A DNA stretch of 64,000 bases from Oscillatoria acuminata PCC 6304 (GCF_000317105.1 NC_019693.1:3903227-3967226); one strand, 5' to 3'. Shown: positions 445 to 54,274, numbered from the stretch's first letter. The notes: generated by a model not told the origin, from the letters alone. Numbers and translations: made by a program.

Positions 445-2966
445 ATTAGGGGTCGAGAATGGAGTCACCTCCATCCCCTCCCATTCAGAACCGGACATGA
501 GACTTTCACCTCATCCGGCTCCTAGTTTAGACGCCCATTGTCATTGGTACGACTTGACGTTCTGCATATCTTCAGCCGTCTTTTTATCGTGACAGTGCCG
601 ATGCAATAACTGTAGATTTCGGTATTCATCTTTACCTCCCATTGAGAGTGGCTGGATGTGGTCAACCTCCATCAAGTCTTCCATTGCGAAATATTGTCCG
701 CAACGTGAACATCGGCCTGAGTGCTTTTTAAGCAATTTTGCTACTCGCATTGGAACTTCTAATGAGGTTCCTCTTCTAGTTGCCCAATAACTCCAATTTC
801 CGTCATACGGGGATGCTTCTGGCTTGACCAATGTATGCCTTGTAATTTGAGTATAGGAGTGTTTCCAGAGACTTAATCCGTCTTTTGCTTGAAACAGCCA
901 CTTCTCATTTCTTTCCTTTCCGTTTCCGATTTTAACCGTGACCTTATGGAAATATTTTCTCAGCTTTTCAAGGTTTGCCTGACCGCATCTTGATACTGTC
1001 CATGCCCTCAATTGTTGCCAAATGTTATAGTCCATTTGGCTGAAGGTTTCCGCTGAAACTACCCCTGAGTAGTAATTACTCCAACCTCTAATGATTGGGT
1101 TTAGTCTACTTATTAGGGCCGCTTGGGGTGCAGTTTTATGATTTTTGATGACACCCTTTAATGCTTCACTGTGGGCTTTGATTGCTTTGGCGCTTGGCTT
1201 GATATGGGTTTTATGCCCGATTAGTCTGCTGTTTGCGCCTCCTGTTTTCCCGGACTTGTATTTACCTACTGGATATTGCCTAATGGTAAATCCGAGGAAA
1301 TCAAATCCTGGGGTGACCTTTTCTCCATTTACTTCGATTTCTCTAAGTGTGTGGCATATTTTGGTCTTTTCAGGTTTAAGCTCAAGTCCTACGGGCTTTA
1401 GCCAGTTTTCCAAAGCTATCTTGCATTGATTGATGATTTCAATCTCTGGTGAGATTACTACGAAATCATCGGCATATCTGATTAAGGTGGCCTTGACTTT
1501 CTGACCTTGAATTAAAGGATACAGTTCTTCGATTAACCTGGCCATTCCATCCAATGCAATGTTGGCCAGGAGCGGACTTATCACTCCTCCTTGGGGTGTC
1601 CCGCTTGGGGTCTCCTCAAATACGCCATTATCCACTACCCCTGCCTTTAACCATTGTTTGATTTGGCGACGGTGTTGTGAACAACAATCTAATTTGGACA
1701 GTAGGTATTCATGGTTAATCTTGTCGAAGCATTTGGTTATATCTGCATCTAGGACATAATAACTGCCCTTATTTATAGATGCGTAGATGCGACCTATTGC
1801 GTCGTGGGCAGAGCGTCCTGGTCGGAAACCATAGCTCGTCCCTTCAAACCTAGCTTCCCATTCGGGTTCTAAGGCTTGTTTAACCAAGGCTTGCTCGGCT
1901 CTATCTCTAATAGTTGGGATACCCAATGGGCGCTTTTCATTACGTCCTGGTTTGGGAATCCAAACCCTTCTGAGTGCTTTGGCTAAGAATTGTTCACCAA
2001 GGTCCTTAACAAGTTCGAGGCGTTGTTCGGGTTTTAAGGATTTTACCCCATCTATCCCTGCCGTCCTCTTGCCTTGGTTGTCTTGGGTCACTTTCCTAAC
2101 CGCTAAGAGCCTCGCGTAATATGACGAGGTTAGAAGTTTTTGCAACCTTCTGGCTTTGGCATCCTGTCCCGATTTAGCCGCTTGGAAAATACGTTTTTGC
2201 AACTTAAATACTTTCCTTTGAACTTTTGCCCAAGGAATTGCATTCCATGTTTCCGTAGTCTTTAAACTCGTATTAACCTTGTTCATTGCTACTGTCATCT
2301 ATCCATTGCGTCTAAACCGTAACCTGTTAGCCTATCCATTCCATTACAGAATGGCGTTTGCTTCGGGTTACATCTCACCCCCTCAGTGCATCCGCTTACA
2401 CTTATTACTACTTAGGAAATCGACCAATTTCTAAGAGCATCTGAGGGGTTATAACGTTCCGTCTATGTGGGTGATTCACTTTTTGGCTTGTCCTATCTCC
2501 CGGTGGAATTGAGGGTCTGTGTAGAGGAAGACGAAAAGCCTCTACCTTTCCACGTATCCTTTTTGGATGCAGTGTTTCATCCCATTTCACTGCTAATTTT
2601 TTACGAGAGTTCAGGCCGGACATTCAGTTTCCTTAGCCGTGAGCGATTAGCAGTGGTCTCTATCCTAGGTTGGTCTACCTATTAGAGCCTTCCGTTCCCC
2701 GCTTCAATCCTAGGGTCGTGACTCCTAAAACTGGGGGTGGCTATCGCCGTTGCACCTGAAAAGTGTTGGCAACAAATTATTGCACTACTCATCAGAACCC
2801 TGTGCCGTCCTACCTTGAGTACCAAATTGGTAACTCATTTGGACACGCATAGACAGTTATGAGGTCATCTGGGACGAGTCCCTTTATCTAACCCAAGGGG
2901 GGTTAAAGCCTCACTGGGGGTTATTTCAGGCATTTCAGCCTTATTTCACTCCCAAACGTTTCGCAC
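445..2966 (-). mobile_element. Group II intron (about 2.5 kb) with an intron-encoded protein in domain IV
   Basis: The reverse-strand 5' end reads GTGCGAAACGTTTGGG (consensus GUGYG). Domain V at about 486-519 reads (rc) GAGCCGGATGAGGTGAAAGTCTCATGTCCGGTTC, matching the classic consensus. The 3' end is ...CCCCTAAT, ending in AY. The boundaries exactly restore the uninterrupted MITE sequence GACGAA|AAATCAGGG. Confidence 0.85.
541..2298 (-). CDS. Group II intron-encoded reverse transcriptase/maturase with C-terminal HNH endonuclease domain
   Basis: 585 aa. RT palm motif is present (...LIRYADDFVVIS...). A maturase X region is present (RGWSNYYS). A C-terminal HNH motif is present (CSRCG...VDHIQPLSMGGKDEYRNLQLLHRHCHDKKT). 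Confidence 0.9.
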   Translation of the reverse strand: MTVAMNKVNTSLKTTETWNAIPWAKVQRKVFKLQKRIFQAAKSGQDAKARRLQKLLTSSYYARLLAVRKVTQDNQGKRTAGIDGVKSLKPEQRLELVKDLGEQFLAKALRRVWIPKPGRNEKRPLGIPTIRDRAEQALVKQALEPEWEARFEGTSYGFRPGRSAHDAIGRIYASINKGSYYVLDADITKCFDKINHEYLLSKLDCCSQHRRQIKQWLKAGVVDNGVFEETPSGTPQGGVISPLLANIALDGMARLIEELYPLIQGQKVKATLIRYADDFVVISPEIEIINQCKIALENWLKPVGLELKPEKTKICHTLREIEVNGEKVTPGFDFLGFTIRQYPVGKYKSGKTGGANSRLIGHKTHIKPSAKAIKAHSEALKGVIKNHKTAPQAALISRLNPIIRGWSNYYSGVVSAETFSQMDYNIWQQLRAWTVSRCGQANLEKLRKYFHKVTVKIGNGKERNEKWLFQAKDGLSLWKHSYTQITRHTLVKPEASPYDGNWSYWATRRGTSLEVPMRVAKLLKKHSGRCSRCGQYFAMEDLMEVDHIQPLSMGGKDEYRNLQLLHRHCHDKKTAEDMQNVKSYQ

Positions 2967-25380: not shown

Positions 25381-25930
25381 GGTTCTCTCCGGTCCCCTCC
25401 CCTTGGCAAGGGGAGGGTTAGGGTGGGGTTCTTTTTGTGCGATTCCCTACGGGATAGCTCCGCTTACCGCACATCACGAAGAAAGAGGTTGGCACCCGGC
25501 TCCATACAGGCGCGATCGCCCTAGCCCTGTCAAGGTGATAAATTTAATGACGAAAAATCAGGGTTTCTTGGACAGGCGATCACTCTCGCGGCCCTACAAG
25601 AGGTAAATTTAATGACGAAAAATCAGGGTTTCTTGTAGGGGCGTATTGCATACGCCCAAAAGAGGGCGTATGCAATACGCCCCTACAATCTACACACCTT
25701 GACAGGGCTAGTGCGATCGCCCCCAAGAGTGCGTGACGTGGCGATCGGCAAAGAGGGACCCCACCCTAACCCTTCCCTTGCCAAGGGGAGGGAACCGGAG
25801 GTGCAGTTAAGCGTAAAAAACCTACTCTTGTATAAAGAATTAATCCCCCCCGGTTGTTTCCACTCTTGCTCCCCCTTCCCTCCCAGGGAAGGGGGTTGGG
25901 GGGTTAGGTCAATCTGGATGAGCAAGCAAA
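25381..25930. repeat. Nested repeat region: MITE copy B (25521-25711, with an internal partial tandem duplication) inserted into a larger palindromic element whose intact counterpart lies at about 46990-47170
   Basis: CTAGCCCTGTCAAGG...CCTTGACAGGGCTAG encloses the GGGGCGTATTGCATACGCCC hairpin. The flanks ...CACGAAGAAAGAGGTTGGCACCCGGCTCCATACAGGCG / GAGTGCGTGACGTGGCGATCGGCAAAGAGGGACCCCACCCTAACCC are contiguous in the 47040-47130 copy. Confidence 0.65.
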
Positions 25931-27258: not shown

Positions 27259-29253
27259 TCACGAACTGCTTCGACTAACTATTTCAACGGCTTTAGCATT
27301 TAATCCCTTTTCGTTTATTAAAAGTACAAATTCAACCACATCTCCAGCATTTAATCTTTGCTCATCACCACGAATATCGCGAAAATGAACAAAGATGTCT
27401 TGTTCGTGTTTCCCTCTAATAAAACCAAACCCTCTAATATTGCTAAACTTCGTCACTGTGCCCTGTTCTCGTTCAACTTGTGCAGCAACAAATGCAGATT
27501 GGGGACGTTTTAAAGCTGGTGATTCTGCTGGAGTTGTAACGAAATCCTCATTTAGTTGGGTAATGAGATCAGTTGTAAAGGCTTTGCGGCGAGTTGCCTC
27601 AAATTGAGAATAAGTCACTTTTGCCAGCACTTTATCAATTAAAAGAGTAGCCTTTTTAAAGGTTTCAAGGGCTTGATCGTCATCCCATAAAACCCCACGT
27701 AGACTATCACAGTATTTTTCAATCTTCTTGCTGTTCAAATAAGGGATTTGAGATGTCTCAACCAACATACGAAATAACATTAAAATATGAAAACGAAAAG
27801 CCCGATAGCTTTTGGCATTTAATGTTTTTTGCACAAAGAAGCGTTCAAGTAAGCTATATGCGTAACCACTACAGTAATAAGGGTAAGGATTATGTTCCTC
27901 TTGAAAAAGCTTCTCTTCATAAGCTTTTAACAACTCACCGTAATAACGATGCGTACTTTGTGGCTCATTCAAAAACATCCCCAGAAAACATTTGACTTGT
28001 GTTGCTAATGAAATGATCTGGGTAGGTTTTACAGGAAGTCCATCATATTGCTTAGAACGGCGCTCATAATAAAGTGGTCGCTCATTTTTTAAGGTAGTAT
28101 AAAATTCTTCAAGCTGTTTATGAAAAGGCTTGATTGATTAAAATGCTTCTACATAAACTTGAGTTTGCCTATTAGTTGCTCGAATAATTTGGTTCGTCAC
28201 TTCAGTATTGTTTGTGACTATCAGTTTTAATGGCACAAACAATTTGTCAGTGAGCGCATCCTTGTTAAGGAATATTACATGACTTGTCTGGCAGCCATTA
28301 ACGACCTGATAGTCTTGAATAGAAAAGCGTGAACCAACCTGCTGAACATTCTTAGCAACTACTGTAATTCCATTATTCAAAAGAGCAAATCTATCGCTTT
28401 GCTCTTGATCCTGTATCGTTACTTCAATTTCTTGGTTAACAAGATTATGTCCTTGAAAATCTCGTACATTGTCATAAAAAAGACTTCTAATAAGATTGCC
28501 CTCGGCATCTGTGATTAGCTTCAAATACTCTAAAGCCGGTAGAATTCCAATATAAGCTTGATGGACTTCACCAATAGTCGGCATAGCCGTGTGTTTTTCA
28601 AAATTGATTTCTTTAGTAACTTTCCGTCTCAACTCTAAATAAAGTCGCTTAATATACTCATTATCTACAGGAACAAACCGAACTTGACTAAAAAGCTTAG
28701 TTCCTTCAATTGCAGTTTTTTCAACTTGAATTCTACCCTCTAAGGTTGCATCTCCTAACCATGTTCCTGTCGTAACGTAGTACATCTCACAGACAGGGGC
28801 CTTACCCATGTCCATATCAATGCTAAATCTGTAAACATAATCTTTGAGAGTACGAAGGTTTGTTAACTGCGGATTCATAGGAATCGCAGGTTGCTCTTCA
28901 AAGAAACTACGAACACCAAACAAAAAGTTGCCTAAATCTCCCGAATCAAATTTTGGTGAAGTTTTTGATTGTATAAAAACAAATTTTACCTCAAATCGGC
29001 GTAGGGTTTTACGAAAAAAGTCTATTTCTTCTTGTGATGTGACAATGTGATCGTTGACAAGAACTGCTATTCCATCAAGAGCATTATCATGACTTCCACC
29101 AATTATTGTGGTTTCAACGTCAAAAGGATCAGGGTGAATTTTCGAGAGAACTGTGTGGTTGACAAAATATTCAAAAGCAGTTGCTTCATCAAGGTGATCA
29201 AGGCTACTCTCATCAACAAAATTTTTGACGTAACTCTTTAGAATCTGATCCAT
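27259..29253 (-). pseudogene. AIPR-like (abortive-infection phage-resistance family) gene with C-terminal cold-shock (CSD) domain, interrupted by a single in-frame TAA at 28138-28140
   Basis: ORFs 28138-29253 (371 aa, contains VVNGCQTSHVIF, an NGxQT-type motif) and 27259-27978 (239 aa) are in the same frame. The 159 nt between them translate without stops (SIKPFHKQLEEFYTTLKNERPLYYERRSKQYDGLPVKPTQIISLATQVKCFLG). The C-terminus GTVTKFSNIRGFGFIRGKHEQDIFVHFRDIRGDEQRLNAGDVVEFVLLINEKGLNAKAVEIV matches the CspA-type CSD pattern. Local GC is about 38% versus about 50% in flanks. Confidence 0.5.
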
Positions 29254-42255: not shown

Positions 42256-45200
42256 ATGATAAAAATCAGTCCATCTGTCCTCCTGCGTCTATTGAGCAAA
42301 CTGTCTCAGCTTTGCTACCCCAAAAATCAGCCTTCAACGCCATTGCTACAATTCCTGCATTCCGTGGGAATTGCCCTCGTCAGTGTCACCCTTGCCACGG
42401 TGATTAAAAGTGCCCTAGCACCCTTAATCTTAGGGGAAAGCCCATTTTTGGTGTATTTTGCGGCGATTATGGTCAGTGCTTGGTTTGGGGGTCCGAAAGC
42501 GGGAGTGATGGCTACCCTGGGGGCCGGATTAGTCAGCAGTTACTTATTTTTATCTCCCGGTTATGCTCTGATAGAAAGCAGTCCGAGCCAAATATTTCGG
42601 TTAATTTTATTTTTAATCGAAGGGTCGGCAATTGTGATCGCCATTGGTTCATTGCAACATACGAAACAACAGTTCGCCCAGAGTGCTAGAACCGCTCAAC
42701 AACATTTTGAATCTTTTTTGCAAAGCGAACAGCGCTTTCATTTATTGGTGGATGGCATCGAAGATTATGGACTTTATATGCTTGCGCCCGATGGGCGGGT
42801 AAATAGCTGGAATCCGGGAGCAGAACGCCTCAAAGGGTATGCACCCGAGGAGATTATTGGTCAACATTTTTCCTGCTTTTATCCCCCAGAAGCAGTGGCG
42901 GAAGGGCAACCGGAACGAGACTTGAAACAGGCGGCAGAACAGGGACGATTGGAACAAGAAGCAGAACGACTGCGAAAGGACAGAACCCGCTTTTGGGTGC
43001 ATGAAGTGATTACACCGTTATTCGATAAGCAGGGTAATCTTTATGGGTTTTCTAAAATTAGCCGGGATATCACCGAAAGTAAGCAAACTGAGGCGGAACT
43101 CAGAGCCAGTGAACAACGATTTAAGACCCTCGCTGAATCGACAGTGGAAGGGATTTTATTTTATGAAGGCGACTGCATCATTGCCGTGAATCGCTCCCTG
43201 GAAAAGATATTTGGATATGACCCGGACGACCTGAATGGACTGCCCTTAGCCTCTATTTTTACCGAGGAGACGGTAGCATTAATGGTGAACGACTGCCAAT
43301 GGATGCAGGAGGGAGCATCGGAGGCAGTCGGGATCAAAAAAGAGGGGACAATGGTGAGCCTAGAAGCAGTAATTCAACCGACTCTCTATTTGGGTCGTTC
43401 CGTATGGATGGCATCAGTCCGGGACATCAGCGATCGCAAACGGGCAGAAGCCGACCTCCAACAAACCTTAAAAGAATTATCCGATTTCCAATGGGCTTTA
43501 GATAAATCAGCAATTGTTGCTACAACTGATGCTAAAGGAACGATTCAATATGTTAACGAAAAATTTATTGAAATTTCTAAATATTCCGAGTCTGAATTGA
43601 TTGGACAAGACCATCGGCTGATTAATTCCGGTTATCATCCTAAAGAATTTTTTATCAATCTTTGGGTGACCATCGGTCGCGGGGAAGTGTGGCGAGGTGA
43701 AATTAAAAATCGGGCCAAAGATGGGACTTATTATTGGGTCGATACAGTCATTGTGCCGTTTTTAGATAGTCATAAAAAGCCCTTTCAATATTTAGCCATC
43801 CGCTACGATATTAGCCAACGGAAACAGGCCGAAGAAGCCCTGCGCGACAGTGAAAAACGGTTCCGGGATATGGCAGATACTGCCCCGGTGCTGTTGTGGA
43901 TAGCCAATTGTCAGGGGCAGTGGACCTTTTTAAATAAATGGGGCTTAAACTTCATCGGCGCATTAATTGAAGCGGACCCGGACCTCAACCATCGGGACCG
44001 GATCCATCCCGAGGACCAGGTCCAATGCGTCTTGAGTTACCAACAAGCGGTGAGAGTCGGCCAACCCTTTACCCAGGAATACCGCCTACAACGATCGGAT
44101 GGAGCCTATCGTTGGATGCTAGAAACTGGGGTGCCCCGGTGGAATCCCGAGGGCAATTTAGTCGGGTTCATTGGGTCGGCGATCGATATTACCCCCCTCA
44201 AACAGGCGGACACGGAACGGATGAAACTGTTACAACGGGAACAATCTGCCCGAACTCAAGCCGAAGCCAGCGAGCAGTATTATCGATTCCTGAGCGAGGC
44301 GATTCCGCAAATGGTCTGGACCGCCCTACCGGATGGGACCCTAGATTACCTGAGTCACCGCTGGAGTGAGTACACCGGCTTAAGCGAGGCCGAACTTTTA
44401 GGCTGGGGATGGGAGCCCATCGTGCATCCTGACGACTTGGCCGAATGTAACCAACGGTGGGCCGCTTGCCTAGAAAACGGAGAACCTTATGAAATTGAAG
44501 CCAGAATGCGTCGGGGTTGCGATGGCGCTTATCGCTGGCATCTGGGATTAGCGGTGCCGATGCGGGATCATCAGGGGGCAATCGTCAAGTGGTTTGGGAC
44601 AAATACGGACATTCACGAACGCAAGCAGGTACAGCAAGAGCGCATGGAGTTGTTGGAACGGGAGAAAGCGGCCCGAATTTTGTCCGAACGGGCGACCACA
44701 ATGGTGCATCGGTTACAAGCGATTGTGGATGTGGCGATCGCCCCTTTATCTCTCGATGATCTGGTGCAAGAGTTGCTCGATCGCCTCACGGTGGTATTAG
44801 AAGTAGATGCTGCCGTCATTTTATTGGTCAACGAGGACCAAACCGCCTTAATTGTGACCGCCACAAAAGGCTTAGATTTAGAGCAACCCCTATCTCCGAA
44901 TATCCCGATCCCGATGGGTCTGGGATTTTCTGGACAAATTGCCCAGACTCGGCAACCGATGCGGATTGATCATGATGCTTATACTCAAGTGATTAGTCCG
45001 CTGTTCCGACATAAGAAAATTGAGTCCATTATGGGCGCACCGATGCTACTAGAAGACCGGGTGCTTGGGGTGCTCCATGTCAGTACCGAGTCACGACGAG
45101 AATTCATGGCAGAAGATGTCTATTTGCTGCAACTGGTGGCCGATCGCGTGGCCCTTGCTATTGACCGGGCCAACCTCTATGAGGCCCAGCAGCAAGCCCG

Positions 45201-46365
45201 CGATCGCGCCGAAAAAGCCAACCGACTCAAGGATGAATTTTTGGCGATCGTTTCTCATGAATTGCGGACTCCCCTCAACTCCATTCTCGGCTGGGCGCAA
45301 TTGCTCCGTGCGCGCACCCTGAAAGAAGAAACGCGAGACAAAGCCCTGGAAACCATCGAACGCAATGCCAAGCATCAGGTGACCCTGATTGACGATATCC
45401 TGGATGTCTCGCGGATTATGCGGGGGAAAATTCGCCTGACCCGAGTTCCCTTGTATCTGGAAACTCTCGTGGAACAGGCGATCTCCACCGTGACTCCGGC
45501 AGCGGAAGCTAAATCCATTGAAATTTACACCGAGTTCAACTCCCACGGACAGCCGATTTTAGGGGATACTAGCCGCCTGCATCAAATTGTCTGGAATCTG
45601 CTCTCTAATGCCGTAAAGTTCACCCCCAATGGCGGACGGCTGACGGTGGCGATCGAGCAGGTGGGAGATTACCTAGAATTTCGGGTCCAGGATACAGGGA
45701 TTGGAATCACTGGAGATTTTCTGCCTCACGTCTTTGAGGGCTTCCGCCAAGCCAATAGTTCCTCCACCCGGACTCACGGGGGGCTCGGTTTGGGCTTAAC
45801 CATTGTGCGCTACTTGGTCGAACTGCATGGGGGGACTGTCCATGCCTTCAGCCAGGGAGAAGGCACGGGTTCAACCTTTACCGTGGCACTCCCCATCGGA
45901 GTCTCCCAGAACTCTCCTTTAGACCTCGATTCCATGATTGGCGACGAGAAAGCCATCGCGAACTGTGCCTTGAACCTCGCCGGTTTACAGGTGCTAGTGG
46001 TGGATGACGATCGCGATACCGGAGAGCTAATTGCTCAGGTCCTCGCGGAATATGGGGTCCAGACGACGGTGGTTTTATCCGCTGCCGAAGCCTTAGCCGC
46101 CACCGAGCGATCGCGTCATGATATCTTGATTTCCGATATCGGAATGCCAGAGGAAGACGGCTATGTTTTGATCCGCAAAATTCGCCAGCGCGAGGCGGGA
46201 TACTCTAGGCCCATTCCGGCGATCGCCTTGACTGCTTTCGCTCGGGAAGAGGATCGCCAACAGGCACTTTTAGCCGGGTTTCACCTTCATGTTGCTAAAC
46301 CTGTGGAACCTTTAAAATTAGCCAAAGCTCTCGCGGACATTGCCCAACAAACAGGCTTAATCTAA
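42256..46365 (+). CDS. Hybrid sensor histidine kinase: KdpD-type membrane domain (DUF4118), multiple PAS/PAC, GAF, HisKA, HATPase_c, C-terminal receiver
   Basis: 1369 aa. N-terminal TM block LVSVTLATVIKS…FAAIMVSAWFGG. Repeated PAS-like segments. HisKA H-box LAIVSHELRTPLNSILGWAQLL. G-boxes GLGLGLTIV. Receiver VLVVDDDRDTGELIA…DIGMPEEDGY. Confidence 0.85.
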   Translation: MIKISPSVLLRLLSKLSQLCYPKNQPSTPLLQFLHSVGIALVSVTLATVIKSALAPLILGESPFLVYFAAIMVSAWFGGPKAGVMATLGAGLVSSYLFLSPGYALIESSPSQIFRLILFLIEGSAIVIAIGSLQHTKQQFAQSARTAQQHFESFLQSEQRFHLLVDGIEDYGLYMLAPDGRVNSWNPGAERLKGYAPEEIIGQHFSCFYPPEAVAEGQPERDLKQAAEQGRLEQEAERLRKDRTRFWVHEVITPLFDKQGNLYGFSKISRDITESKQTEAELRASEQRFKTLAESTVEGILFYEGDCIIAVNRSLEKIFGYDPDDLNGLPLASIFTEETVALMVNDCQWMQEGASEAVGIKKEGTMVSLEAVIQPTLYLGRSVWMASVRDISDRKRAEADLQQTLKELSDFQWALDKSAIVATTDAKGTIQYVNEKFIEISKYSESELIGQDHRLINSGYHPKEFFINLWVTIGRGEVWRGEIKNRAKDGTYYWVDTVIVPFLDSHKKPFQYLAIRYDISQRKQAEEALRDSEKRFRDMADTAPVLLWIANCQGQWTFLNKWGLNFIGALIEADPDLNHRDRIHPEDQVQCVLSYQQAVRVGQPFTQEYRLQRSDGAYRWMLETGVPRWNPEGNLVGFIGSAIDITPLKQADTERMKLLQREQSARTQAEASEQYYRFLSEAIPQMVWTALPDGTLDYLSHRWSEYTGLSEAELLGWGWEPIVHPDDLAECNQRWAACLENGEPYEIEARMRRGCDGAYRWHLGLAVPMRDHQGAIVKWFGTNTDIHERKQVQQERMELLEREKAARILSERATTMVHRLQAIVDVAIAPLSLDDLVQELLDRLTVVLEVDAAVILLVNEDQTALIVTATKGLDLEQPLSPNIPIPMGLGFSGQIAQTRQPMRIDHDAYTQVISPLFRHKKIESIMGAPMLLEDRVLGVLHVSTESRREFMAEDVYLLQLVADRVALAIDRANLYEAQQQARDRAEKANRLKDEFLAIVSHELRTPLNSILGWAQLLRARTLKEETRDKALETIERNAKHQVTLIDDILDVSRIMRGKIRLTRVPLYLETLVEQAISTVTPAAEAKSIEIYTEFNSHGQPILGDTSRLHQIVWNLLSNAVKFTPNGGRLTVAIEQVGDYLEFRVQDTGIGITGDFLPHVFEGFRQANSSSTRTHGGLGLGLTIVRYLVELHGGTVHAFSQGEGTGSTFTVALPIGVSQNSPLDLDSMIGDEKAIANCALNLAGLQVLVVDDDRDTGELIAQVLAEYGVQTTVVLSAAEALAATERSRHDILISDIGMPEEDGYVLIRKIRQREAGYSRPIPAIALTAFAREEDRQQALLAGFHLHVAKPVEPLKLAKALADIAQQTGLI

Positions 46366-46474
46366 TCCCTGAATTTCAGGTCCCCTCTGGATCCTGACGA
46401 AGTTTTGCCGGTTTCAAGGCTAAAATTGGAATTAGGGAAGCACCCGTTTGTTGTGAGGCGATTTTATTGGGATC

Positions 46475-46745
46475 ATCTTTGAAAAGAGACCTATCCCCCC
46501 GGCCCCCTTCCCTAAGAGGGAAGGGGGAGAAAGAGATTTGTTTTCCCCTTTCTTTAGTAATTGGGAGCATCTTTGAAAAGAGACCTATCCCCCCGGCCCC
46601 CTTCCCTCAGAGGGAAGGGGGAGAAAGAGATTTGTTTTCCCCTTTCTTTAGTAATTGGGAGCATCTTTGAAAAGAGACCTAACCCCCCGGCCCCCTTCCC
46701 TAGGAGGGAAGGGGGAGAAAGAGATTTGTTTTCCCCTCCCCTACA
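46475..46745. repeat. Tandem repeat, about 3 units of 94 bp, each containing the palindrome CCCCCTTCCCTAAGAGGGAAGGGGG
   Basis: Units start at 46475, 46569 and 46663 with exact 94-bp period. The ORFs over it (46467-46670, 46561-46854) are frame artefacts. Confidence 0.85.
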
Positions 46746-46790
46746 AAAGGCTTACAAGAGTATGTTTTTTACCCTCATGGTGATTGGCCG

Positions 46791-46990
46791 GACTTCCGGT
46801 CCCCTCCCCTTGGCAAGGGGAGGGTTAGGGTGGGGTCCTCCTGACTTGGCTTGACTTCCGGTTCCCTCCCCTTGGCAAGGGGAGGGTTAGGGTGGGGTCC
46901 TCCTGACTTGGCCTGATTTCCGGTCCCCTCCCCTTGGCAAGGGGAGGGTTAGGGTGGGGTCCTCCTGACTTGGCGCAGGCCAAGTCAGGA
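46791..46990. repeat. Tandem repeat, 3 units of 62 bp (GACTTCCGGTCCCCTCCCCTTGGCAAGGGGAGGGTTAGGGTGGGGTCCTCCTGACTTGGC...) ending in the palindrome GACTTGGCGCAGGCCAAGTC
   Basis: Units start at 46791, 46853 and 46915. Each contains the CCCCTTGGCAAGGGG palindrome. Confidence 0.85.
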
Positions 46991-47109
46991 AGAATTAGTA
47001 CGTTGAGGGTCCACTCGCAAGGGCGATCGCACGTCACGAAGAAGCAGGTTGGCACCCGGTTCCATACAGGCGATTAAGCCTCATGGGAGTGCGTGACATG
47101 GCGATCGAC

Positions 47110-47422
47110 CAAGAAGAACCCCACCCTAACCCGGACCTAGAATCAGGGGAGGGGACCGGAAGTCAGGCCAATTAGGGAATTCCAAAAAATAAAATCTCCA
47201 AAACGTTCGTAGTGACGGATCAACGGAGTAGCCCCTACAGATACCTTCCTTTCAGTTGAACGTTTGGAGGATTTATATTTTGCAATCCCCTTAGAAGAAC
47301 CCCACCCTAACCCGGACCTAGAATCAGGGGAGGGGACCGGAAGTCAGGCCAATCAATTAGAAGAACCCCACCCTAACCCGGACCTAGAATCAGGGGAGGG
47401 GACCGGAAATCAGGCCAATCAT
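47110..47422. repeat. Three copies (two tandem) of an about 66-bp unit AGAAGAACCCCACCCTAACCCGGACCTAGAATCAGGGGAGGGGACCGGAAGTCAGGCCAAT, in inverted orientation relative to the 46791-46990 array
   Basis: The CCCCACCCTAACCC core is the reverse complement of the GGGTTAGGGTGGGG core of the upstream array. ORF 47264-47467 is a translation artefact of the repeats. Confidence 0.8.
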
Positions 47423-47635
47423 GATGAGCTTGAAAACACTACTCTTGTAAGGGTAGGGCAAAATTGAGAGGCTCTTATCCAGGTCAGGCTTTCGTGATTT
47501 TCTCAGCATTAAAACCCATTCATCCCGTTTGGGTTCAAAGGACTATTTAGGTTTGACCCGGCTCCACAAATTCAACCCTTTTCACTGCTTAGACCGCTGC
47601 TAAAACAATTCATAATTTTAATGAATTAAACCCGT

Positions 47636-50600
47636 ATGAAACCATTTAATTTTAATCTGGCCACGCTCAGTCCAGAAGCTGATGGACAAAGATTAAAAAA
47701 ACCCCCCCAAACTAACAGTAACCAGCAACAAAAAATCCTATTAGCTAGCGGTATATTAGGGTTGCTTGCCCTCTTAGCCCTCCTGCTCTGGCCAGATCTG
47801 CTGGGTAATCTGTTGGCACAGGATGGGTTTATTCCCCACGGCCATTGTTATCTCTGGAAGCCTTCCTTAGTCTGGCTTCATGTCACCTCAGATACCTTGA
47901 TTGGCATCGCCTATGTTGCCATTTCCACTAGTCTTGCCTATTTTGTTTATAAAGCGCGAAAAAATATCCCCTTTGATTGGATGTTTTTGGCCTTTGGGGC
48001 CTTTATCATTGCTTGTGGCATGACCCATTTTTTAGCGGTCTGGACCTTGTGGAATCCCACCTACTGGTTATCGGGGGATGTCAAATTAATCACCGCGATC
48101 GCCTCCGTCACTACGGCAATTTCTTTACCCCCGTTAATCCCTAGAGCCTTGAGATTATTGGACTCGGCTCAGGTTTCGGAAGAACGTCGCTTGAATCTGG
48201 AGCGGGCCAATTTAGAACTGCAAGCCCTTTATGGTCAGCTTAAGCAACTCGATGAACTTAAAAGCCAATTTTTCGCCAATGTCAGTCACGAATTGCGAAC
48301 CCCTCTGGCTTTAATTTTAGGTCCGACTCAGAAGTTACTCGCCGATCGCCAACTCTTGGAGGAACAACACCGAGACTTGCTCGTAATCGAGCGCAATTCC
48401 CGAATGCTGCTCAAACAGGTTAATGATCTCCTGGATATCTCTAAGCTAGAAGCGGGTAAGATGGAACTCGAAGCAGTTCCCCTAAACTTAGCCAGTCTGA
48501 TCCGCCAAGTGGCGGCGAACTTTGACGCTTTAGCCCTCGAACGGGAAATTAACTTAACGGTCCAGACTCCTGAGTCTTTGGGGACCCAATTGGACCGCCA
48601 AAAAATCGAGCGGGTGGTTTTAAACTTACTCTCCAATGCATTTAAGTTCACACCCCCGGGAGGCCAAATTGACTGTTCTTTGTCTCTGGAAGAGGGCGAA
48701 GGAGAGAAAAACCCGGTAACGATCGCCATCCAAGATAGTGGTCCAGGAGTCCCGTTGGAACGGCGTGAAACCATCTTTGAGCGGTTTAGCCAAATTGAGG
48801 GAGGGAGTACCCGTCGCTTTGGCGGGACTGGGTTGGGATTGGCGATTGTCAAGGAATTTGTCGAACTCCATCAGGGAAGCATTACTGTCTCGGATGCCTC
48901 CCTAGGTGGGGCGATGTTTACGGTCCAACTTCCCATTGAGGTTTCCCCGGACCTCCCTCAGACGGATTCAGAAAGTTCCATCTGGGAGGATCTGGCTGAA
49001 TCGGCGATCGCTGAACTGAAGCCAGAAGCCGATACAACTCCCAGGGTTCTGCTTCCCAATGACCCTCGTCCCCTGGTTTTAGTGGTGGAAGATAACCCGG
49101 AAATGAATCGCTTTGTCTGCGATATCTTAGGACGGGACTATCAAATTGCGACAGCGTTTAACGGGGAGCAAGGATTGGAACAGGCACTCACCCTGCATCC
49201 GGATTTAATCTTGAGTGATGTGATGATGCCCGAAATTGGCGGCGATCGCCTGGTGTCTTTGTTACGCAGTAATCCGGATTTCGCCGATGTGTCCATTATC
49301 ATGCTGACGGCAAAAGATGATGATGATTTGCGGGTGCAGTTATTGCGTGAAGGGGTGCAAGATTATCTGATGAAACCCTTTTCTGTGGAAGAATTGCGGG
49401 CAAGGGTAGGCAATGCAGTCGCCATTAAACGGGTGCGAGATTTGTTACAGCAGGAGTTAGCCTCTCAAAGCTCCGATGTAGAAGTCCTCGCCTCGGAACT
49501 GGCTTTCCATAAGCGAGAACTGGAAGTCGCGCTGATCCTTCAACAGAAACAGTCGGAAGAATTAATCAAGGCGAATCAAATCAAGGATGAGTTTTTATCG
49601 ATTGTTTCCCATGAACTGCGCACGCCTCTCAATTCCATTCTGGGCTGGACTCAGTTGCTTCGCACTCGCAAGCTGAATGAAACCATGCAGAACAAAGCAT
49701 TGGAAACTATTGAGCGCAATGCTAAACAACAGGTGAATTTAATTGATGATATTCTGGATGTTTCTCGGATTATTCGGGGCAAAATTCGCTTAAAACTGCG
49801 TCCGGTGAATTTAATTCCGATTGTGGAAGCGGCCCTGGATACGATGCTTCCCACGGCGGAATCTAAGGGAATTGAGATTGATTTCAACTTTGACCCGGCA
49901 GTCGCCTTGGTTTCGGGAGATAGCGATCGCTTGCAGCAAGTGGCTTGGAATTTGTTTTCTAATGCGGTGAAGTTTACCCCCAATGGCGGCTCGATTTCCG
50001 TGGCGATCGCCCAGACGGATTCCTATATTACCCTCAAGGTTCAGGATACTGGAATTGGCATCAATCCAGACTTTCTGCCCCATATTTTTGAGGGATTCCG
50101 CCAAGCGGATAGTTCTACCACTCGCGCCTATGGCGGATTAGGGTTAGGATTGACCATCGTCCGTCACTTAGTGGAACTCCACGGGGGCAAAGTCCAGGCT
50201 TTGAGCGAGGGGGAAGGCCAAGGGGCCACGTTGATGGTCCAGTTACCGATTCTGCCCAAACCGCCACAAGAGCAAGCAGTCCAGACTTCCTACTCCCGGG
50301 AAGAAGGATTATCCAGTCAACTCTGGGCCCTGGATGGGTTGCAGGTGTTGGTGGTGGATGACGACCCGGATACCGGGGATTTAATGGAAGCGATGCTGAC
50401 CGATTATGGGGTGCGGGTTCAGGTAGTGACTTCGGTTTCCGAGGCGATCGCCCTGATGGACCAATGCAAATTTGATGTGTTAGTCAGCGATATTGGAATG
50501 CCCGGAGAAGACGGATATCATTTAATTCACCAAATCCGCCAGCATGAAGCTGACAGCAACAACCATATTCCTGCGATCGCCCTGACGGCTTTTTCCTCCG

Positions 50601-50710
50601 AGGAGGACCGCGCCCAATCCCTCCTAGCTGGCTTTCAAAAACACCTTTCTAAACCTGTAGAACCCGCCCAATTAGCCAGGGTTTTAGCTCAGTTGGCTTC
50701 AAATCTCTAA
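47636..50710 (+). CDS. Hybrid histidine kinase with N-terminal ethylene-binding-domain-like (ETR1-type) membrane sensor followed by HK-REC-HK-REC
   Basis: 1024 aa. TM region SDTLIGIAYVAISTSLAYFVYKARKNIPFDWMFLAFGAFIIACGMTHFLAVWTLW aligns with Arabidopsis ETR1 [53 protein letters not shown], including the Cu-ligand Cys and His (CGxTH). Two H-boxes are present (FANVSHELRTPLAL; LSIVSHELRTPLNSILGWTQLL). Two receiver domains are present (VLVVEDNPEMNRF…SDVMMPEIGGD; VLVVDDDPDTGDL…DIGMPGEDGY). Confidence 0.8.
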   Translation: MKPFNFNLATLSPEADGQRLKKPPQTNSNQQQKILLASGILGLLALLALLLWPDLLGNLLAQDGFIPHGHCYLWKPSLVWLHVTSDTLIGIAYVAISTSLAYFVYKARKNIPFDWMFLAFGAFIIACGMTHFLAVWTLWNPTYWLSGDVKLITAIASVTTAISLPPLIPRALRLLDSAQVSEERRLNLERANLELQALYGQLKQLDELKSQFFANVSHELRTPLALILGPTQKLLADRQLLEEQHRDLLVIERNSRMLLKQVNDLLDISKLEAGKMELEAVPLNLASLIRQVAANFDALALEREINLTVQTPESLGTQLDRQKIERVVLNLLSNAFKFTPPGGQIDCSLSLEEGEGEKNPVTIAIQDSGPGVPLERRETIFERFSQIEGGSTRRFGGTGLGLAIVKEFVELHQGSITVSDASLGGAMFTVQLPIEVSPDLPQTDSESSIWEDLAESAIAELKPEADTTPRVLLPNDPRPLVLVVEDNPEMNRFVCDILGRDYQIATAFNGEQGLEQALTLHPDLILSDVMMPEIGGDRLVSLLRSNPDFADVSIIMLTAKDDDDLRVQLLREGVQDYLMKPFSVEELRARVGNAVAIKRVRDLLQQELASQSSDVEVLASELAFHKRELEVALILQQKQSEELIKANQIKDEFLSIVSHELRTPLNSILGWTQLLRTRKLNETMQNKALETIERNAKQQVNLIDDILDVSRIIRGKIRLKLRPVNLIPIVEAALDTMLPTAESKGIEIDFNFDPAVALVSGDSDRLQQVAWNLFSNAVKFTPNGGSISVAIAQTDSYITLKVQDTGIGINPDFLPHIFEGFRQADSSTTRAYGGLGLGLTIVRHLVELHGGKVQALSEGEGQGATLMVQLPILPKPPQEQAVQTSYSREEGLSSQLWALDGLQVLVVDDDPDTGDLMEAMLTDYGVRVQVVTSVSEAIALMDQCKFDVLVSDIGMPGEDGYHLIHQIRQHEADSNNHIPAIALTAFSSEEDRAQSLLAGFQKHLSKPVEPAQLARVLAQLASNL

Positions 50711-50870
50711 ACTTGAAGTTTGAAGCGGACCCTATCCAGAGTTTCACTTCAGAGTTAAGATAAGGGCATGAACAAATTGGGGCTCAAAGGAAGCGGACCT
50801 ACGGTCAAGTTGGATCCTTCAATCTCAGGGTTAGAGCGTGACTGCCAATCCGATACAAGGACGCAAGGCG

Positions 50871-51248
50871 ATGGCCAAAATTTTGATTGTTGATGACTCT
50901 ACCCTTTCTCGCGGAATCCTACGACGCATCCTCCAGACAGAAGGCCATTCAATTATTGAGGCCAAAGATGGATTGATGGGCATTGAGAGTTACTATATAG
51001 AAAAACCCGACCTCGTTTTACTGGATATCGCCATGCCAGATATGCAGGGAACGGAAGTGCTGGAAAAATTACGCGCCTTCGACGATCGCGCCCGCATCGT
51101 GATGGCGACGGCTGACCTGCAAGAACTGACCCGCGCTGCGGTGATGGCTGCTGGAGCACTGGGTTATCTGACTAAACCCTATAATCCCGATGTGGTTCTG
51201 GACATCGTGAATCAGGTCCTCCGAGGAATTCCGGGAGGGGTAGGATGA
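50871..51248 (+). CDS. CheY-like single-domain response regulator (longer ORF from 50838)
   Basis: MAKILIVDDSTLSRGILRRIL…DIAMPDMQGTEVL…GALGYLTKP. Receiver Asp pocket is present and no output domain. Confidence 0.75.
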   Translation: MAKILIVDDSTLSRGILRRILQTEGHSIIEAKDGLMGIESYYIEKPDLVLLDIAMPDMQGTEVLEKLRAFDDRARIVMATADLQELTRAAVMAAGALGYLTKPYNPDVVLDIVNQVLRGIPGGVG

Positions 51249-51889
51249 AACTGACAGAAACCCAAAAGGATGCTTTAAGCGAACTGCTGAATATGGGTTT
51301 CTCGCGCACTGCATCGGCCCTCTCGGAACTCACGGGTCATCGTGTGTTACTAGAGGTTCCCCAGGTTTCCATTCATCCCATTGAAGAACTCAGCGCCAAA
51401 CTCGGGACCTTTGTCAAAGGGGAAATTGCCACAGTCCAGCAAATTTTTACGGGACGGGTTTCAGGAAATGCCCTGTTATTGTTGAACTATGACGGGGCTG
51501 TGCAACTGACAGAGTTGGTGACGCCGGAACAAAATATCCATCGCGATCGCCTCGATGCCTCTGCTGCCGAAGTGCTCACGGAAATTGGCAATATTTTACT
51601 CAATGCCTGTCTGAGCGTTTTTGGGAATTTGTTACAAATGCAAATTTCGTTTTCCGTTCCTCGGTTACATTTAGAAGCCTTAGATGGGTTACTCCATTCT
51701 CTAAGCATTGGGAAGGCGGAAATGCGCTATGCAATGGTGGTTTATACCGGATTTCGGATGAAGGAAAATTCAATTCACGGGTATTTAGTTATGGTCTTAA
51801 GTGTGGTTTCTTTAGAAAAATTGCTAGAAGAAATTGATAACTGGGTAAGGGAGGAAATAGCTCCACCTAACCTTTCCATTTCTTCATAA
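51245..51889 (+). CDS. CheC-family protein (CheY-P phosphatase-like)
   Basis: 214 aa. The N-terminus ..QKDALSELLNMGFSRTASALSELTGHRVLLEVPQVSI matches the CheC/CheX pattern. Its start codon overlaps the CheY stop (ATGA). Confidence 0.5.
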   Translation: MKLTETQKDALSELLNMGFSRTASALSELTGHRVLLEVPQVSIHPIEELSAKLGTFVKGEIATVQQIFTGRVSGNALLLLNYDGAVQLTELVTPEQNIHRDRLDASAAEVLTEIGNILLNACLSVFGNLLQMQISFSVPRLHLEALDGLLHSLSIGKAEMRYAMVVYTGFRMKENSIHGYLVMVLSVVSLEKLLEEIDNWVREEIAPPNLSISS

Positions 51890-51901
51890 TGGAATCATCT
51901 A

Positions 51902-54274
51902 TTGAGTTGTACAAAAGGGCTTAGTAAAATGAACAGGATTACCGACCCGTTCAACTATAATCAAGACCTCCTGCATTGGGTCAATGACTTAGCAGACCGA
52001 GGGATATTTACGACCGATGCCCAGTTGAATATCCAAAGTTGGAATCATTGGCTGGAACTTTATAGTGGGTTGAATGCGGACCGGGTAGTGGGGCAAAATT
52101 TACTAGAAATTTATCCCGAATTAAAGCATCGGCGATTAGATCGATTTTTTGATCAAGCTCTAGCGGGACAAGTGGCGGTTTTGTCTCAGCGTTTACATGG
52201 GTTTTTGTTACCGATGCTCCCAGCCGATGTTTATAAGGACGTGCCTTATATGCTACAAAGTGCGAAAATTGCGCCAATTGTGGAAGCGTCCCGGGTGATT
52301 GGCACGATCGCCACCCTTGAAGATGTCACAGAACGGGTGCTGCGGGAGTCGGAACTCCACCATCAAATTAAGGAATTAAAACGGACTGAATCGGCGCTGA
52401 TGGCGACTCAAAGCCAGCTTCAATATTTGTTGTCCTCTAGTCCAGCAGTCATTTATACTTGTCCTGCTAAGCAGCCCTATTCTCCAACTTTTGTGAGTGA
52501 GAATATTGTTGAACATCTGGGATATCGACCGGAAGAAATTGTCGGGGACTGCTCATTTTGGCGCGATCGCATTCATCCCGATGATGCACCCGAGCTATTC
52601 TCCAGCATCAAACTGTTATATCAGAGGGGTCATTCCCAGAGCGAGTATCGGTTCTGGCATCCAGAGGGCAGCTATCGATGGGTGCGGGATGAAATGAAGC
52701 TGATTTGCAAGGGAGAGCACCAGGTTGAAGAAATTGTCGGGGCATTATATGATATCACCGATCGCAAACGAGTCGAAGAACAAGTGCGCCAACAGGCAGC
52801 CCTTCTGGACATTGCCACCGATGCGATTTGGGTCAAGGACCTAAACCAAACGATTCAGTTTTGGAATAAAGGGGCGGAAAAATTATATGGATGGACTCGT
52901 GAGGAAGCAAGTGCTCAAAGTAGTAGCCGCCTGTTTGAGGTGAAAAGTGCCGAAGAACTCAACCGCATTGAGCAAACGGTCCTGACAACGGGGGAATGGC
53001 ATGGAGAGTTAGAGCAAATCACCAAAGCGGGTAAATCCATCACCGTTGCCAGTCGGCAGACCCTGGTGCGGGACGATCGAGATCGGCCCTGTTCCATTCT
53101 CTCAGTGAATACGGATATTACTGAGAAAAAACAGCTAGAAGCCCAGTTTTTGCGAGCGCAACGCCTCGAAAGTATCGGCACATTAGCGAGTGGCATTGCT
53201 CATGATTTGAACAACATTCTCACCCCCATTTTGGGGGCTGTGCAACTGTTGCAAATGTTTCCGTTAAATGCCCAGCAAATGCGCTTAATTTCTATGCTGG
53301 AAATTAATACGTTGCGCGGCGCGGACCTGCTCAAACAAGTGCTTTCATTTGCCAAAGGATTAGATGGCGATCGCACCCTGCTCCAAATCAAACACCTGAT
53401 TGATGAAACCACAGCGATCGCCCGAGAAACCTTTCCCAAATCCATTGAAATTACCACGGCGATCGACCCCCAACTCTGGTTAATTTCCGGGGACCCGACT
53501 CACCTGCATCAAATCCTGATGAATCTGTGCGTTAATGCTCGTGATGCCATGCCCAACGGCGGGATTTTATCCATTGAAGCTGAAAATTTGAACCTCACCC
53601 CATCGGATTTAATCCTAGACCCCGCAGCTCAAGTTGGCTCTTATATTAAACTCACAATTCGAGATACCGGAACCGGCATTTCTCCGGAAATTTTAGACCG
53701 ATTATTTGAACCGTTCTTTACCACCAAAGCCTTAGGACAAGGCACGGGATTAGGGTTGCCCACCGTTCGAGGCATCGTTAAAAATCATGGCGGTTTTTTA
53801 TTGATTTCTAGTCAACTTGGCCAAGGCACCGCCTTCACCGTGTATTTGCCTGCGATTCAGGGAACAGAAGCTCTAGCTTCGGAACCGCAAGAACTTCCTT
53901 TCGGAGCAGGTGAGCTAATTTTAGTCGTCGATGATGAAGTCGCTATCTGTGAAATTGCTCAAGCCCTGCTGCAAAAATTTGGCTATCATGTTCTAACGGC
54001 CAATGATGGGATGGAGGCTATTTCCCTTTACAGTCAACGATCCTCAGAAATTGCCGTAGTGATTCTGGATATGATGATGCCATTCATGGATGGAATGCTC
54101 ACTTTAAAAGCCCTTCAAAAAATTAACTCCTCGGTCAAAGTTATTGCCATTAGCGGACTTCTGAGCAATTTTCCCTTAGCTGAATTGGGCGATGATAATT
54201 CATTCACCTATTTATCCAAACCCTATAAAACCCGCGATTTATTATGCTTAATTCGCAAACAAATTGAGCAATAA
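51902..54274 (+). CDS. PAS/PAC-rich hybrid sensor histidine kinase with C-terminal receiver
   Basis: 790 aa. Three PAS-like blocks. H-box LASGIAHDLNNILTPILG. ATPase G-boxes GTGLGLPTV. Receiver LILVVDDEVAICEIA…ILDMMMPFMDG. Confidence 0.8.
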   Translation: MSCTKGLSKMNRITDPFNYNQDLLHWVNDLADRGIFTTDAQLNIQSWNHWLELYSGLNADRVVGQNLLEIYPELKHRRLDRFFDQALAGQVAVLSQRLHGFLLPMLPADVYKDVPYMLQSAKIAPIVEASRVIGTIATLEDVTERVLRESELHHQIKELKRTESALMATQSQLQYLLSSSPAVIYTCPAKQPYSPTFVSENIVEHLGYRPEEIVGDCSFWRDRIHPDDAPELFSSIKLLYQRGHSQSEYRFWHPEGSYRWVRDEMKLICKGEHQVEEIVGALYDITDRKRVEEQVRQQAALLDIATDAIWVKDLNQTIQFWNKGAEKLYGWTREEASAQSSSRLFEVKSAEELNRIEQTVLTTGEWHGELEQITKAGKSITVASRQTLVRDDRDRPCSILSVNTDITEKKQLEAQFLRAQRLESIGTLASGIAHDLNNILTPILGAVQLLQMFPLNAQQMRLISMLEINTLRGADLLKQVLSFAKGLDGDRTLLQIKHLIDETTAIARETFPKSIEITTAIDPQLWLISGDPTHLHQILMNLCVNARDAMPNGGILSIEAENLNLTPSDLILDPAAQVGSYIKLTIRDTGTGISPEILDRLFEPFFTTKALGQGTGLGLPTVRGIVKNHGGFLLISSQLGQGTAFTVYLPAIQGTEALASEPQELPFGAGELILVVDDEVAICEIAQALLQKFGYHVLTANDGMEAISLYSQRSSEIAVVILDMMMPFMDGMLTLKALQKINSSVKVIAISGLLSNFPLAELGDDNSFTYLSKPYKTRDLLCLIRKQIEQ

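Follow-up and report, generated by a model that had tools for sequence, protein, structure and literature searches.

Phosphatases of the CheC family are understood almost entirely within CheA-driven chemotaxis. The Dif exopolysaccharide pathway of Myxococcus xanthus, which is not a motility pathway, has a CheC homologue, DifG, that removes phosphate from the sink receiver DifD (PMC4671073). In the Che3 system of Rhodospirillum centenum, CheY3 is phosphorylated by the classical kinase CheS3 only, and not by CheA3 (PMC3868531). In Che7 of M. xanthus, CheY7 binds to the HEAT protein Cpc7 and exerts its effect by way of it (Darnell et al. 2014, cited via PMC11514114). The locus described here belongs to Oscillatoria acuminata PCC 6304. 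It is a three-gene cassette, cheY-cheC-HK3 (50871-54274, + strand), which encodes a CheY-like single-domain response regulator, a predicted CheC-type phosphatase of phosphorylated CheY (CheY~P) and a hybrid histidine kinase with PAS domains. The cassette lies in a stretch of 64,000 nucleotides (GCF_000317105.1, NC_019693.1:3903227-3967226), hereafter the window, and positions are counted from its first letter unless another locus is named. The reading favoured here, with a probability of roughly 0.6, is that PAS hybrid kinase, CheY receiver and dedicated CheC make up a portable module that was detached intact in one Oscillatoriales clade. In this module, HK3 would feed CheY, and CheC would drain it.

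The cassette forms the downstream part of a run of five open reading frames (ORFs), in the order HK1, HK2, CheY, CheC and HK3. An ORF check found all five on the + strand, just where the original prediction had placed them; that prediction had also taken the whole run to be one signalling island. The nearest genomes are Laspinema and 'Oscillatoria' assemblies, whose CheC is 92-96% identical to that of the window. The ratio of nonsynonymous to synonymous substitution (dN/dS), computed for the five genes against four Laspinema genomes, was 0.04-0.09 for CheC, ~0.1 for CheY, 0.13-0.17 for HK2, 0.14-0.19 for HK3 and 0.17-0.22 for HK1. Purifying selection is strong on all five genes and strongest on CheC, and all five are therefore maintained genes.

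The evidence that carries the favoured reading is the conservation of the cassette across genomes. In a scan of one genome per species, 346 loci with a close CheC relative were found, and the best 80 of these were analysed. A CheY-like gene stands immediately 5' of cheC in all 77 loci with enough flank, and a hybrid kinase carrying the same N-terminal PAS domain as HK3 (PAS_N) lies 3' of it in 70 of the 71 testable loci. HK1 and HK2 adjoin the cassette in loci of the Laspinema group only. The conserved unit is therefore cheY-cheC-HK3, and, judged by gene order, these three genes rather than the 12-kb block would be the functional unit. The five genes thus do not form one island, as only CheY-CheC-HK3 travel together. 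In all cyanobacterial loci with testable flank except one (L026), an HK3 orthologue of 50-88% identity is found directly 3' of cheC, and HK3 can be regarded as the conserved kinase partner in the cassette.

The two small genes are joined closely. The cheC ATG at 51245 overlaps the cheY TGA (51246-51248) in the sequence ...GGATGA..., with a GGAGGGG Shine-Dalgarno-like run upstream, so that the translational coupling proposed earlier for the pair is borne out. In 76 of the 78 loci in which CheY was seen, stop and start either overlap (by 1, 4, 10, 11, 14 or 26 nt) or lie at most 12 nt apart, and coupling is therefore a trait of the family.

In most genomes, the trio is found in chemosensory company. 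The non-cyanobacterial loci come mostly from Blastocatellia and Pyrinomonadaceae, together with one Gemmataceae and one Anaerolineales genome. CheB lies directly upstream of the cassette in 47 of the 47 such loci with enough flank (a single Syntrophobacterales locus has an upstream flank too short for this test), and CheA is present in all 32 with at least 9 kb of flank. In Acidobacteriota, Planctomycetota, Chloroflexota and some cyanobacteria, the cassette ends a Che7-like operon, the order being CheY-CheA-CheW-methyl-accepting chemotaxis protein (MCP)-PAS/HEAT-CheR-CheB and then the cassette. Pfam annotation of two full operons (L015 and L028) gave a CheA with Hpt, dimerisation, HATPase and CheW domains and without a receiver, a CheW, a soluble MCP, a large HEAT-repeat protein, a CheR and a CheB. 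A separate CheY precedes CheA in the full operons; the cassette CheY is therefore an extra receiver. Among cyanobacteria, Aulosira, Allocoleopsis, a Coleofasciculaceae genome and others carry the full operon plus cassette, with an HK3 orthologue of 50-56% identity as the kinase. Thus, the earlier view of the trio as a non-chemosensory system does not hold for most genomes, where its genes are the final three of a CheA-based Che7-like operon. These host operons are of the 'alternative cellular function' (ACF) type.

Variations on this arrangement were also observed. In Oscillatoria princeps and Oscillatoria PCC 10802 (L020 and L023), cheR and cheB are found on either side of the cassette. In O. 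princeps (L020, 9342-18983), whose downstream genes were scanned, the cassette precedes CheB, CheY, a second set of receiver, CheC-like protein and PAS hybrid kinase, and a further CheC paralogue, which amounts to tandem cassettes in one operon. A receiver-CheC fusion is present between CheC and the kinase in Anaerolineales (L042, 2815-3777) and Syntrophobacterales (L048, 1167-2204). As a separate observation, the CheB of these operons (e.g. L017, 8064-9152; proteins P0121-P0240) is 70-72% identical between Cyanobacteria and Blastocatellia, and CheC 57-65% identical. Such cross-phylum identity is unusually high and suggests horizontal transfer of the whole Che7-like operon between phyla.

In 17 cyanobacterial loci, the cassette stands alone, with nothing che-like nearby. 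The carriers are Laspinema, Phormidium CCY1219, Arthrospira/Limnospira, Lyngbya CCY1209 and several metagenome-assembled genomes of Oscillatoriaceae. The cassette is thus found in four contexts: at the end of an operon, between cheR and cheB, as a tandem duplicate and alone. When CheC was placed on a neighbour-joining tree, the stand-alone copies grouped in one clade, whose sister group is made up of cyanobacterial copies embedded in operons. This would point to one event of detachment or duplication, with the cassette retained ever since, and the local lack of che genes appears to be the derived state of one Oscillatoriales clade, to which the Laspinema-like genome of the window belongs. No upstream neighbours are common between genera in the stand-alone form; in Arthrospira, the neighbours are an FAD oxidoreductase and a DUF1667 protein. 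The CheY of the stand-alone clade also differs in itself: in the beta3-alpha3 loop MPDMQG replaces MTGMxG, and at the aromatic switch position Tyr replaces Phe, Ile or Leu.

The absence of CheA, CheW and MCP from the vicinity, on which the original prediction was built, was borne out by tblastn: no conventional che operon lies just beyond the five genes, within ~42 kb upstream or 10 kb downstream. Queries for CheA, CheW, MCP, the PAS-HEAT protein, CheR and CheB, taken from one cyanobacterium and one acidobacterium, matched nothing in the 64-kb window beyond generic REC, HATPase and PAS domains, and the Che7 order of CheY-CheA-CheW-soluble MCP-HEAT-CheR-CheB is not present there. A Pfam scan of 20 other ORFs of the window returned metabolic and unrelated genes, with no che gene among them. 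In the Laspinema loci that extend far enough, CheA, CheW, MCP, CheR and CheB are likewise absent within 10 kb on either side. A search with CheB for a cluster elsewhere in the genome gave 120 matches of 70-94% identity, none of which is named Laspinema or Arthrospira and most of which are without a name; a look-up of the cluster members added only the names Oscillatoria, Kamptonema, Chloroflexota and Anaerolineae. The supplement of a Laspinema population-genomics study lists a 'cheB_7', a Prokka label that probably stems from receiver-domain similarity.

The assignment of 51245-51889 (+ strand, 214 aa) as CheC, which the favoured reading needs, withstood checks by profile, structure, motif and conservation. 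The Pfam CheC profile (PF04509) gave 37.5 bits against a cut-off of 22, and the CheX profile 25.9 bits, just under its cut-off of 27. With phmmer, the Thermotoga maritima CheC structures 1XKR/2F9Z in the Protein Data Bank were matched end to end over residues 1-195 (E 2.7e-14). An AlphaFold (AF2) model with a mean confidence (pLDDT) of 79.9 found T. maritima CheC (1XKR) as its top Foldseek hit, at TM-scores of 0.82/0.85, followed by FliY and an archaeal CheC. The modelled protein has the predicted pseudo-twofold alpha/beta sandwich of ~200 aa that defines the CheC fold. Both [D/S]-x3-E-x2-N-x22-P motifs, which mark the two active-site helices in CheC, were found, namely D9-E13-N16-x22-P39 and E109-E113-N116-x22-P139, the first residue of the second being Glu and not Asp or Ser. 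All eight motif residues are invariant across 22 CheC family members from several phyla. Databases label the gene simply 'chemotaxis protein CheC'. The NCBIfam equivalog 'CheY-P phosphatase CheC' (NF041093, Thermotogales type) scored 80.9 bits and did not reach its cut-off of 250; the window protein is therefore a distinct subfamily and not that equivalog. Its identity as a CheC-family protein, predicted to be a CheY~P phosphatase, is solid. CheD, with which class I CheC of the B. subtilis type works, was not among the Pfam-scanned genes of the two full operons or the scanned ORFs of the window, though no search was aimed at it.

The receiver next to it (50871-51248, + strand, 125 aa) probably starts at the ATG at 50871, as its homologues open with MAKILIVDD, and not at GTG 50838, where the ORF opens. 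Pfam REC matched with 90.8 bits, while the top NCBIfam match, CheY_Halo, stayed under its cut-off. An alignment of 37 orthologues placed the DD pair, the phospho-acceptor Asp, the Thr, the Lys and the aromatic switch Tyr.

HK3 (51929-54274, + strand) is a soluble hybrid kinase, with the likely start at ATG 51929 (its homologues have 781 aa) and not at TTG 51902, where the ORF opens. PAS_N, recognised by its identity to cassette kinases and HEAT proteins, occupies 52001-52369 and is followed by the Pfam domains PAS, PAS, HisKA (with an AHDLNN H-box), HATPase and REC. The kinase core of the cassette varies by phylum, being BarA-like, and nearest to HK1/HK2, in Acidobacteriota and CckA-like in cyanobacteria. 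Between the PAS_N of HK3 and that of other cassette kinases, identity is 86-90% inside the Laspinema group and 45-62% for other genera and phyla. The HK3 domain is also 34-45% identical to the N-termini of the PAS-HEAT proteins of the Che7-like operons (40% for the HEAT protein of L028 and 34% for that of L017). A library-wide search with PAS_N gave 599 representative clusters at E < 1e-10, in which the domain is nearly always N-terminal and belongs mostly to histidine kinases and sometimes to GGDEF proteins. The idea that PAS_N is a special docking domain between HK3 and the HEAT protein was set aside on this census, which describes a broad N-terminal sensory PAS subtype. PAS_N is read here as a putative sensory input common to the cassette kinase and the HEAT protein; contact or pairing of the two through their PAS domains is speculation. 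In one match in the library, protein P0375 of 4799 aa, the HK3-type N-terminal PAS domain is present 32 times in tandem.

Put together, the favoured reading would work as follows. A cytoplasmic signal would be sensed by the PAS domains of HK3, which would then autophosphorylate and hand on the phosphate, both to the receiver domain within HK3 and to CheY. CheY~P would be hydrolysed by CheC through its two Glu/Asn sites, and the CheY/CheC pair would either set the lifetime of the signal or serve as a phosphate drain for the kinase. Transfer from HK3 to CheY is favoured because the cassette persists and moves without CheA, because the full operons have a CheY of their own, and because Dif and Che3 offer precedents. 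For the role of phosphatase plus sink that had been suggested for the pair, DifD/DifG is a direct experimental precedent (PMC4671073).

Several observations weigh against this account. The alpha-1 helix of the cassette CheY carries the signature VDDSxLSR (VDDSxLSRR), which is of the CheA-substrate type and resembles the signatures of the CheB and CheY substrates of CheA, among them the CheB of the very operons that carry the cassette. It is kept across phyla, while the cassette kinase core changes subfamily. A CheA donor would account for this pattern no less well than HK3, and the comparison is suggestive, though not decisive. In Arthrospira, which belongs to the stand-alone clade, other parts of the genome hold che clusters that include cheB, cheR and cheC (PMC2853384), and a CheA acting in trans is therefore possible. 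The tree that unites the stand-alone copies is a simple neighbour-joining one without support values. The chief rival builds on such points: a CheA encoded elsewhere would phosphorylate CheY, CheC would end the signal, and either CheY~P or CheA, through the HK3 receiver, would control HK3, the local absence of che genes being a matter of gene order only. The placement of the cassette inside CheA operons in the non-cyanobacterial loci and in several cyanobacterial ones agrees with it, as does the finding that CheA3 of R. centenum phosphorylates a receiver domain of the classical kinase CheS3 (PMC3868531). However, the full operons already own a CheY beside CheA; the cassette has been moved, duplicated and retained as a whole with no CheA close by; and the loop and switch changes of the stand-alone CheY are compatible with a change of partner. 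A CheA in trans is, on balance, the less likely donor, though a serious one. The strictest version of the favoured reading, an autonomous and transferable cassette in which CheC serves a classical HisKA kinase/receiver pair with no CheA involved, can be put forward tentatively.

The multistep phosphorelay advanced at the outset, in which the receivers of HK1, HK2 and HK3 would all feed CheY with CheC as their common drain, fares worse. Some observations favour it: the genes are co-directional, HisKA-HATPase-REC modules with intact H-box His and receiver Asp are found in HK1, in HK2 (twice) and in HK3, HK2 ends 160 nt 5' of cheY without a clear terminator, and collinearity extends across the HK2-cheY junction in those Laspinema genomes that reach it. 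Phosphotransfer from receiver to receiver, however, requires an Hpt intermediate. No Hpt domain was found in the five proteins by Pfam, nor did tblastn match the Hpt region of CheA anywhere in the window, in which not all small ORFs were scanned. Moreover, the adjacency of HK1 and HK2 is limited to one genus, with Arthrospira, Lyngbya, Phormidium and the other stand-alone loci carrying unrelated genes upstream, and in the window strain a 1-kb repeat insertion splits HK1 from HK2. The five-gene scheme is therefore improbable. The lack of the CheA-CheB neighbours found in most relatives might suggest that the trio is what is left of a lost chemotaxis-like operon, now decaying and without present function. 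This is scarcely credible, as all reading frames are intact, the catalytic residues are invariant, the stand-alone form is kept across several genera, and the dN/dS of the three genes (0.04-0.19) already contradicts it. The portable module fed by HK3 thus remains the preferred explanation.

The upstream kinases are then best taken as independent sensor kinases that are chance neighbours of the cassette in Laspinema. HK1 (42256-46365, + strand) is a membrane-anchored hybrid histidine kinase, with DUF4118, five PAS, GAF, HisKA, HATPase and REC domains by Pfam and its H-box at aa 1001. HK2 (47636-50710, + strand) has an ETR1_N domain followed by two HisKA-HATPase-REC modules, with H-boxes at aa 218 and 659; both modules keep the His and the Asp. 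The HK1 core has a paralogue in the second of these modules (58-60% amino acid identity, with H-boxes that differ at two positions), and nucleotide identity is 65-68% between 45214-46334 in HK1 and 49568-50676 in HK2, which suggests local duplication or fusion.

Among cyanobacterial sensors with an ethylene-binding domain, SynEtr1/UirS of Synechocystis has an ETR1-type three-helix membrane domain with a Cys-x3-His copper/ethylene site, joined to a histidine kinase. HK2 resembles it in both the Cys-x3-His-bearing membrane domain and the linked histidine kinase, but lacks the phytochrome-type GAF and has two tandem kinase-receiver modules instead. The ETR1_N match (PF25487) reached 126 bits against a cut-off of 27 over aa 78-174, covering positions 2-97 of the 97 in the profile. 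The helix-1 motif ...SD..I.IAY... is retained, and so is the Cys-x3-His (CGMTH) site, in the stretch ...FIIACGMTHFLAVW..., so that HK2 has the ETR1 membrane domain with the Cys/His site that a putative ethylene-receptor-type sensor would carry. The proteins matched in a search with the ethylene domain were mostly short or incomplete; cyanobacteria commonly carry this domain, coupled to a variety of outputs.

The 1270-nt gap between HK1 and HK2 is indeed packed with repeats, three tandem-repeat families having been found by Tandem Repeats Finder (TRF) and a repeat finder. A 94-nt unit is present in three tandem copies at 46466-46747. Next to it lies a ~700-bp palindromic element (46751-47451) resembling a miniature inverted-repeat transposable element (MITE), which is bounded by CTTACAAGAGTA... 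terminal inverted repeats and within which 62-nt units (+) and inverted 66-nt units (-) form arrays. Five of the eight related loci lose homology at ~46437-46467 and regain it at 47475-47497, with at most ~40 nt of their own sequence between the breakpoints; a sixth (L044) has ~137 nt of non-matching sequence in place of the repeat block, and two do not reach the junction. The ~1.0 kb at 46466-47474 is therefore an insertion specific to the window strain. The original prediction gave this gap a possible regulatory or recombinogenic role. The repeats are not conserved, and a conserved regulatory role is excluded by the locus comparison; the insertion is recent, is made of dispersed mobile repeats and may affect HK2 expression in this strain. 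Copies of the spacer repeat unit are also present at 25389 and 25759, as is the terminal repeat word at 25816, where a second palindromic MITE-like element (25387-25834) shares the unit CCGGTCCCCTCCCCTTGGCAAGGGGAGGGTTAGGGTGGGG and the CTTACAAGAGTA-type ends. Dispersed MITE-like DNA of this kind is typical of filamentous cyanobacteria. The window also holds 91 copies of the HIP1 octamer GCGATCGC, against 0.65 expected, which marks it as cyanobacterial. Rfam and tRNA scans gave no match inside the five-gene run, and promoter and terminator scans found no more sites there than in shuffled sequence.

A few other features of the window deserve mention. An 884-aa ORF at 30674-33328 (- strand) is a clear homologue of the Major Vault Protein, with matches to Vault repeats (226 bits), the MVP shoulder (186 bits) and Vault_2/3/4. 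Bacteria seldom have vault proteins, which are typical of eukaryotes. A group II intron occupies 445-2298 (- strand), with Rfam domain 5/6 at 445-523 and an intron-encoded protein (reverse transcriptase, maturase, HNH) at 541-2298. A full-length Rfam match to the Helicobacter '5' ureB sRNA' (85.9 bits) lies at 37094-37384 (- strand), antisense within the urease alpha-subunit gene (36943-38676, + strand), and may reflect only the conservation of the urease coding sequence. Upstream of the five genes are an AIPR (abortive-infection-type) protein (28138-29253, - strand) and a CHAT-domain protease-like protein (34752-36701, + strand), both of which may be defence-related.

The cassette has been kept as a unit in four genomic contexts and at least five phyla. 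If it is autonomous, CheC phosphatases would extend beyond chemosensory pathways, and a widespread add-on would have been attached to, inserted in and detached from Che7-like operons, with PAS_N linking the kinase and the PAS-HEAT protein to a single signal. It offers a three-protein system in which to ask whether CheC enzymes tune ordinary two-component kinases, and it bears on how Che7-type operons connect to downstream kinases. It would also be a signalling module of gliding Oscillatoriales (Laspinema, Arthrospira/Limnospira, Lyngbya and Phormidium) distinct from the studied Tax, Pix and Hmp systems. For annotation, the locus is a caution that co-directional kinase genes need not be one system.

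With respect to what has been described, cheC, cheB and cheR were noted in some cyanobacterial che clusters in 2010, in the Arthrospira genome paper (PMC2853384). No functional study of the cassette was found in the searched literature. Nor were the CheY-CheC-PAS hybrid kinase cassette, its Che7-like attachment across phyla or its detached Oscillatoriales form found described there. The parts of the cassette are of known kinds. The window CheC is like that of T. maritima and Bacillus subtilis, of the CheC/CheX/FliY family, in fold (TM 0.82-0.85), length, pseudo-twofold layout, the two active-site helices and the E-x2-N...P motifs. However, it is only 26% identical, its second motif opens with Glu rather than Asp or Ser, its host lacks flagella, and its gene partner is a classical hybrid HisKA kinase.

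The host operons of the relatives share their seven-gene order with Che7 of M. xanthus (CheY7-CheA7-CheW7-Mcp7-Cpc7 HEAT-CheR7-CheB7; MXAN_6959-6965). Most products are also similar in size, with a receiver-less CheA of ~670-720 aa, CheW of ~160, a HEAT-repeat protein, CheR of ~280 and CheB of ~348, while the MCP is shorter and more variable, at ~490-750 aa against 821 aa for Mcp7 (tables in PMC3945109, for order and sizes alike). The likeness is one of gene order and sizes; Che7, as described, has no terminal CheY-CheC-kinase cassette, and none of its seven gene types occurs in the window. R. centenum Che3 is comparable with the cassette-bearing operons in another way, being a che cluster with a classical PAS histidine kinase that carries receiver domains, and there it is this kinase, not CheA, that phosphorylates a single-domain CheY (PMC3868531, PMC4436063). 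Che3, however, has no CheC, its CheA3 has a receiver domain whereas the CheA of cassette-bearing operons has none, and the receivers of CheS3 are N-terminal whereas that of HK3 is C-terminal. In Dif, it is the CheA-type kinase DifE, as part of an MCP/CheW/CheA cluster, that feeds the pair, whereas the conserved partner in the cassette is a PAS hybrid HisKA kinase, with no CheA nearby in the window. The likeness to Dif is one of design: in both, a single-domain CheY-like receiver is paired with a CheC homologue in a non-flagellar setting, and in M. xanthus, the two act as a sink and its phosphatase (PMC4671073).

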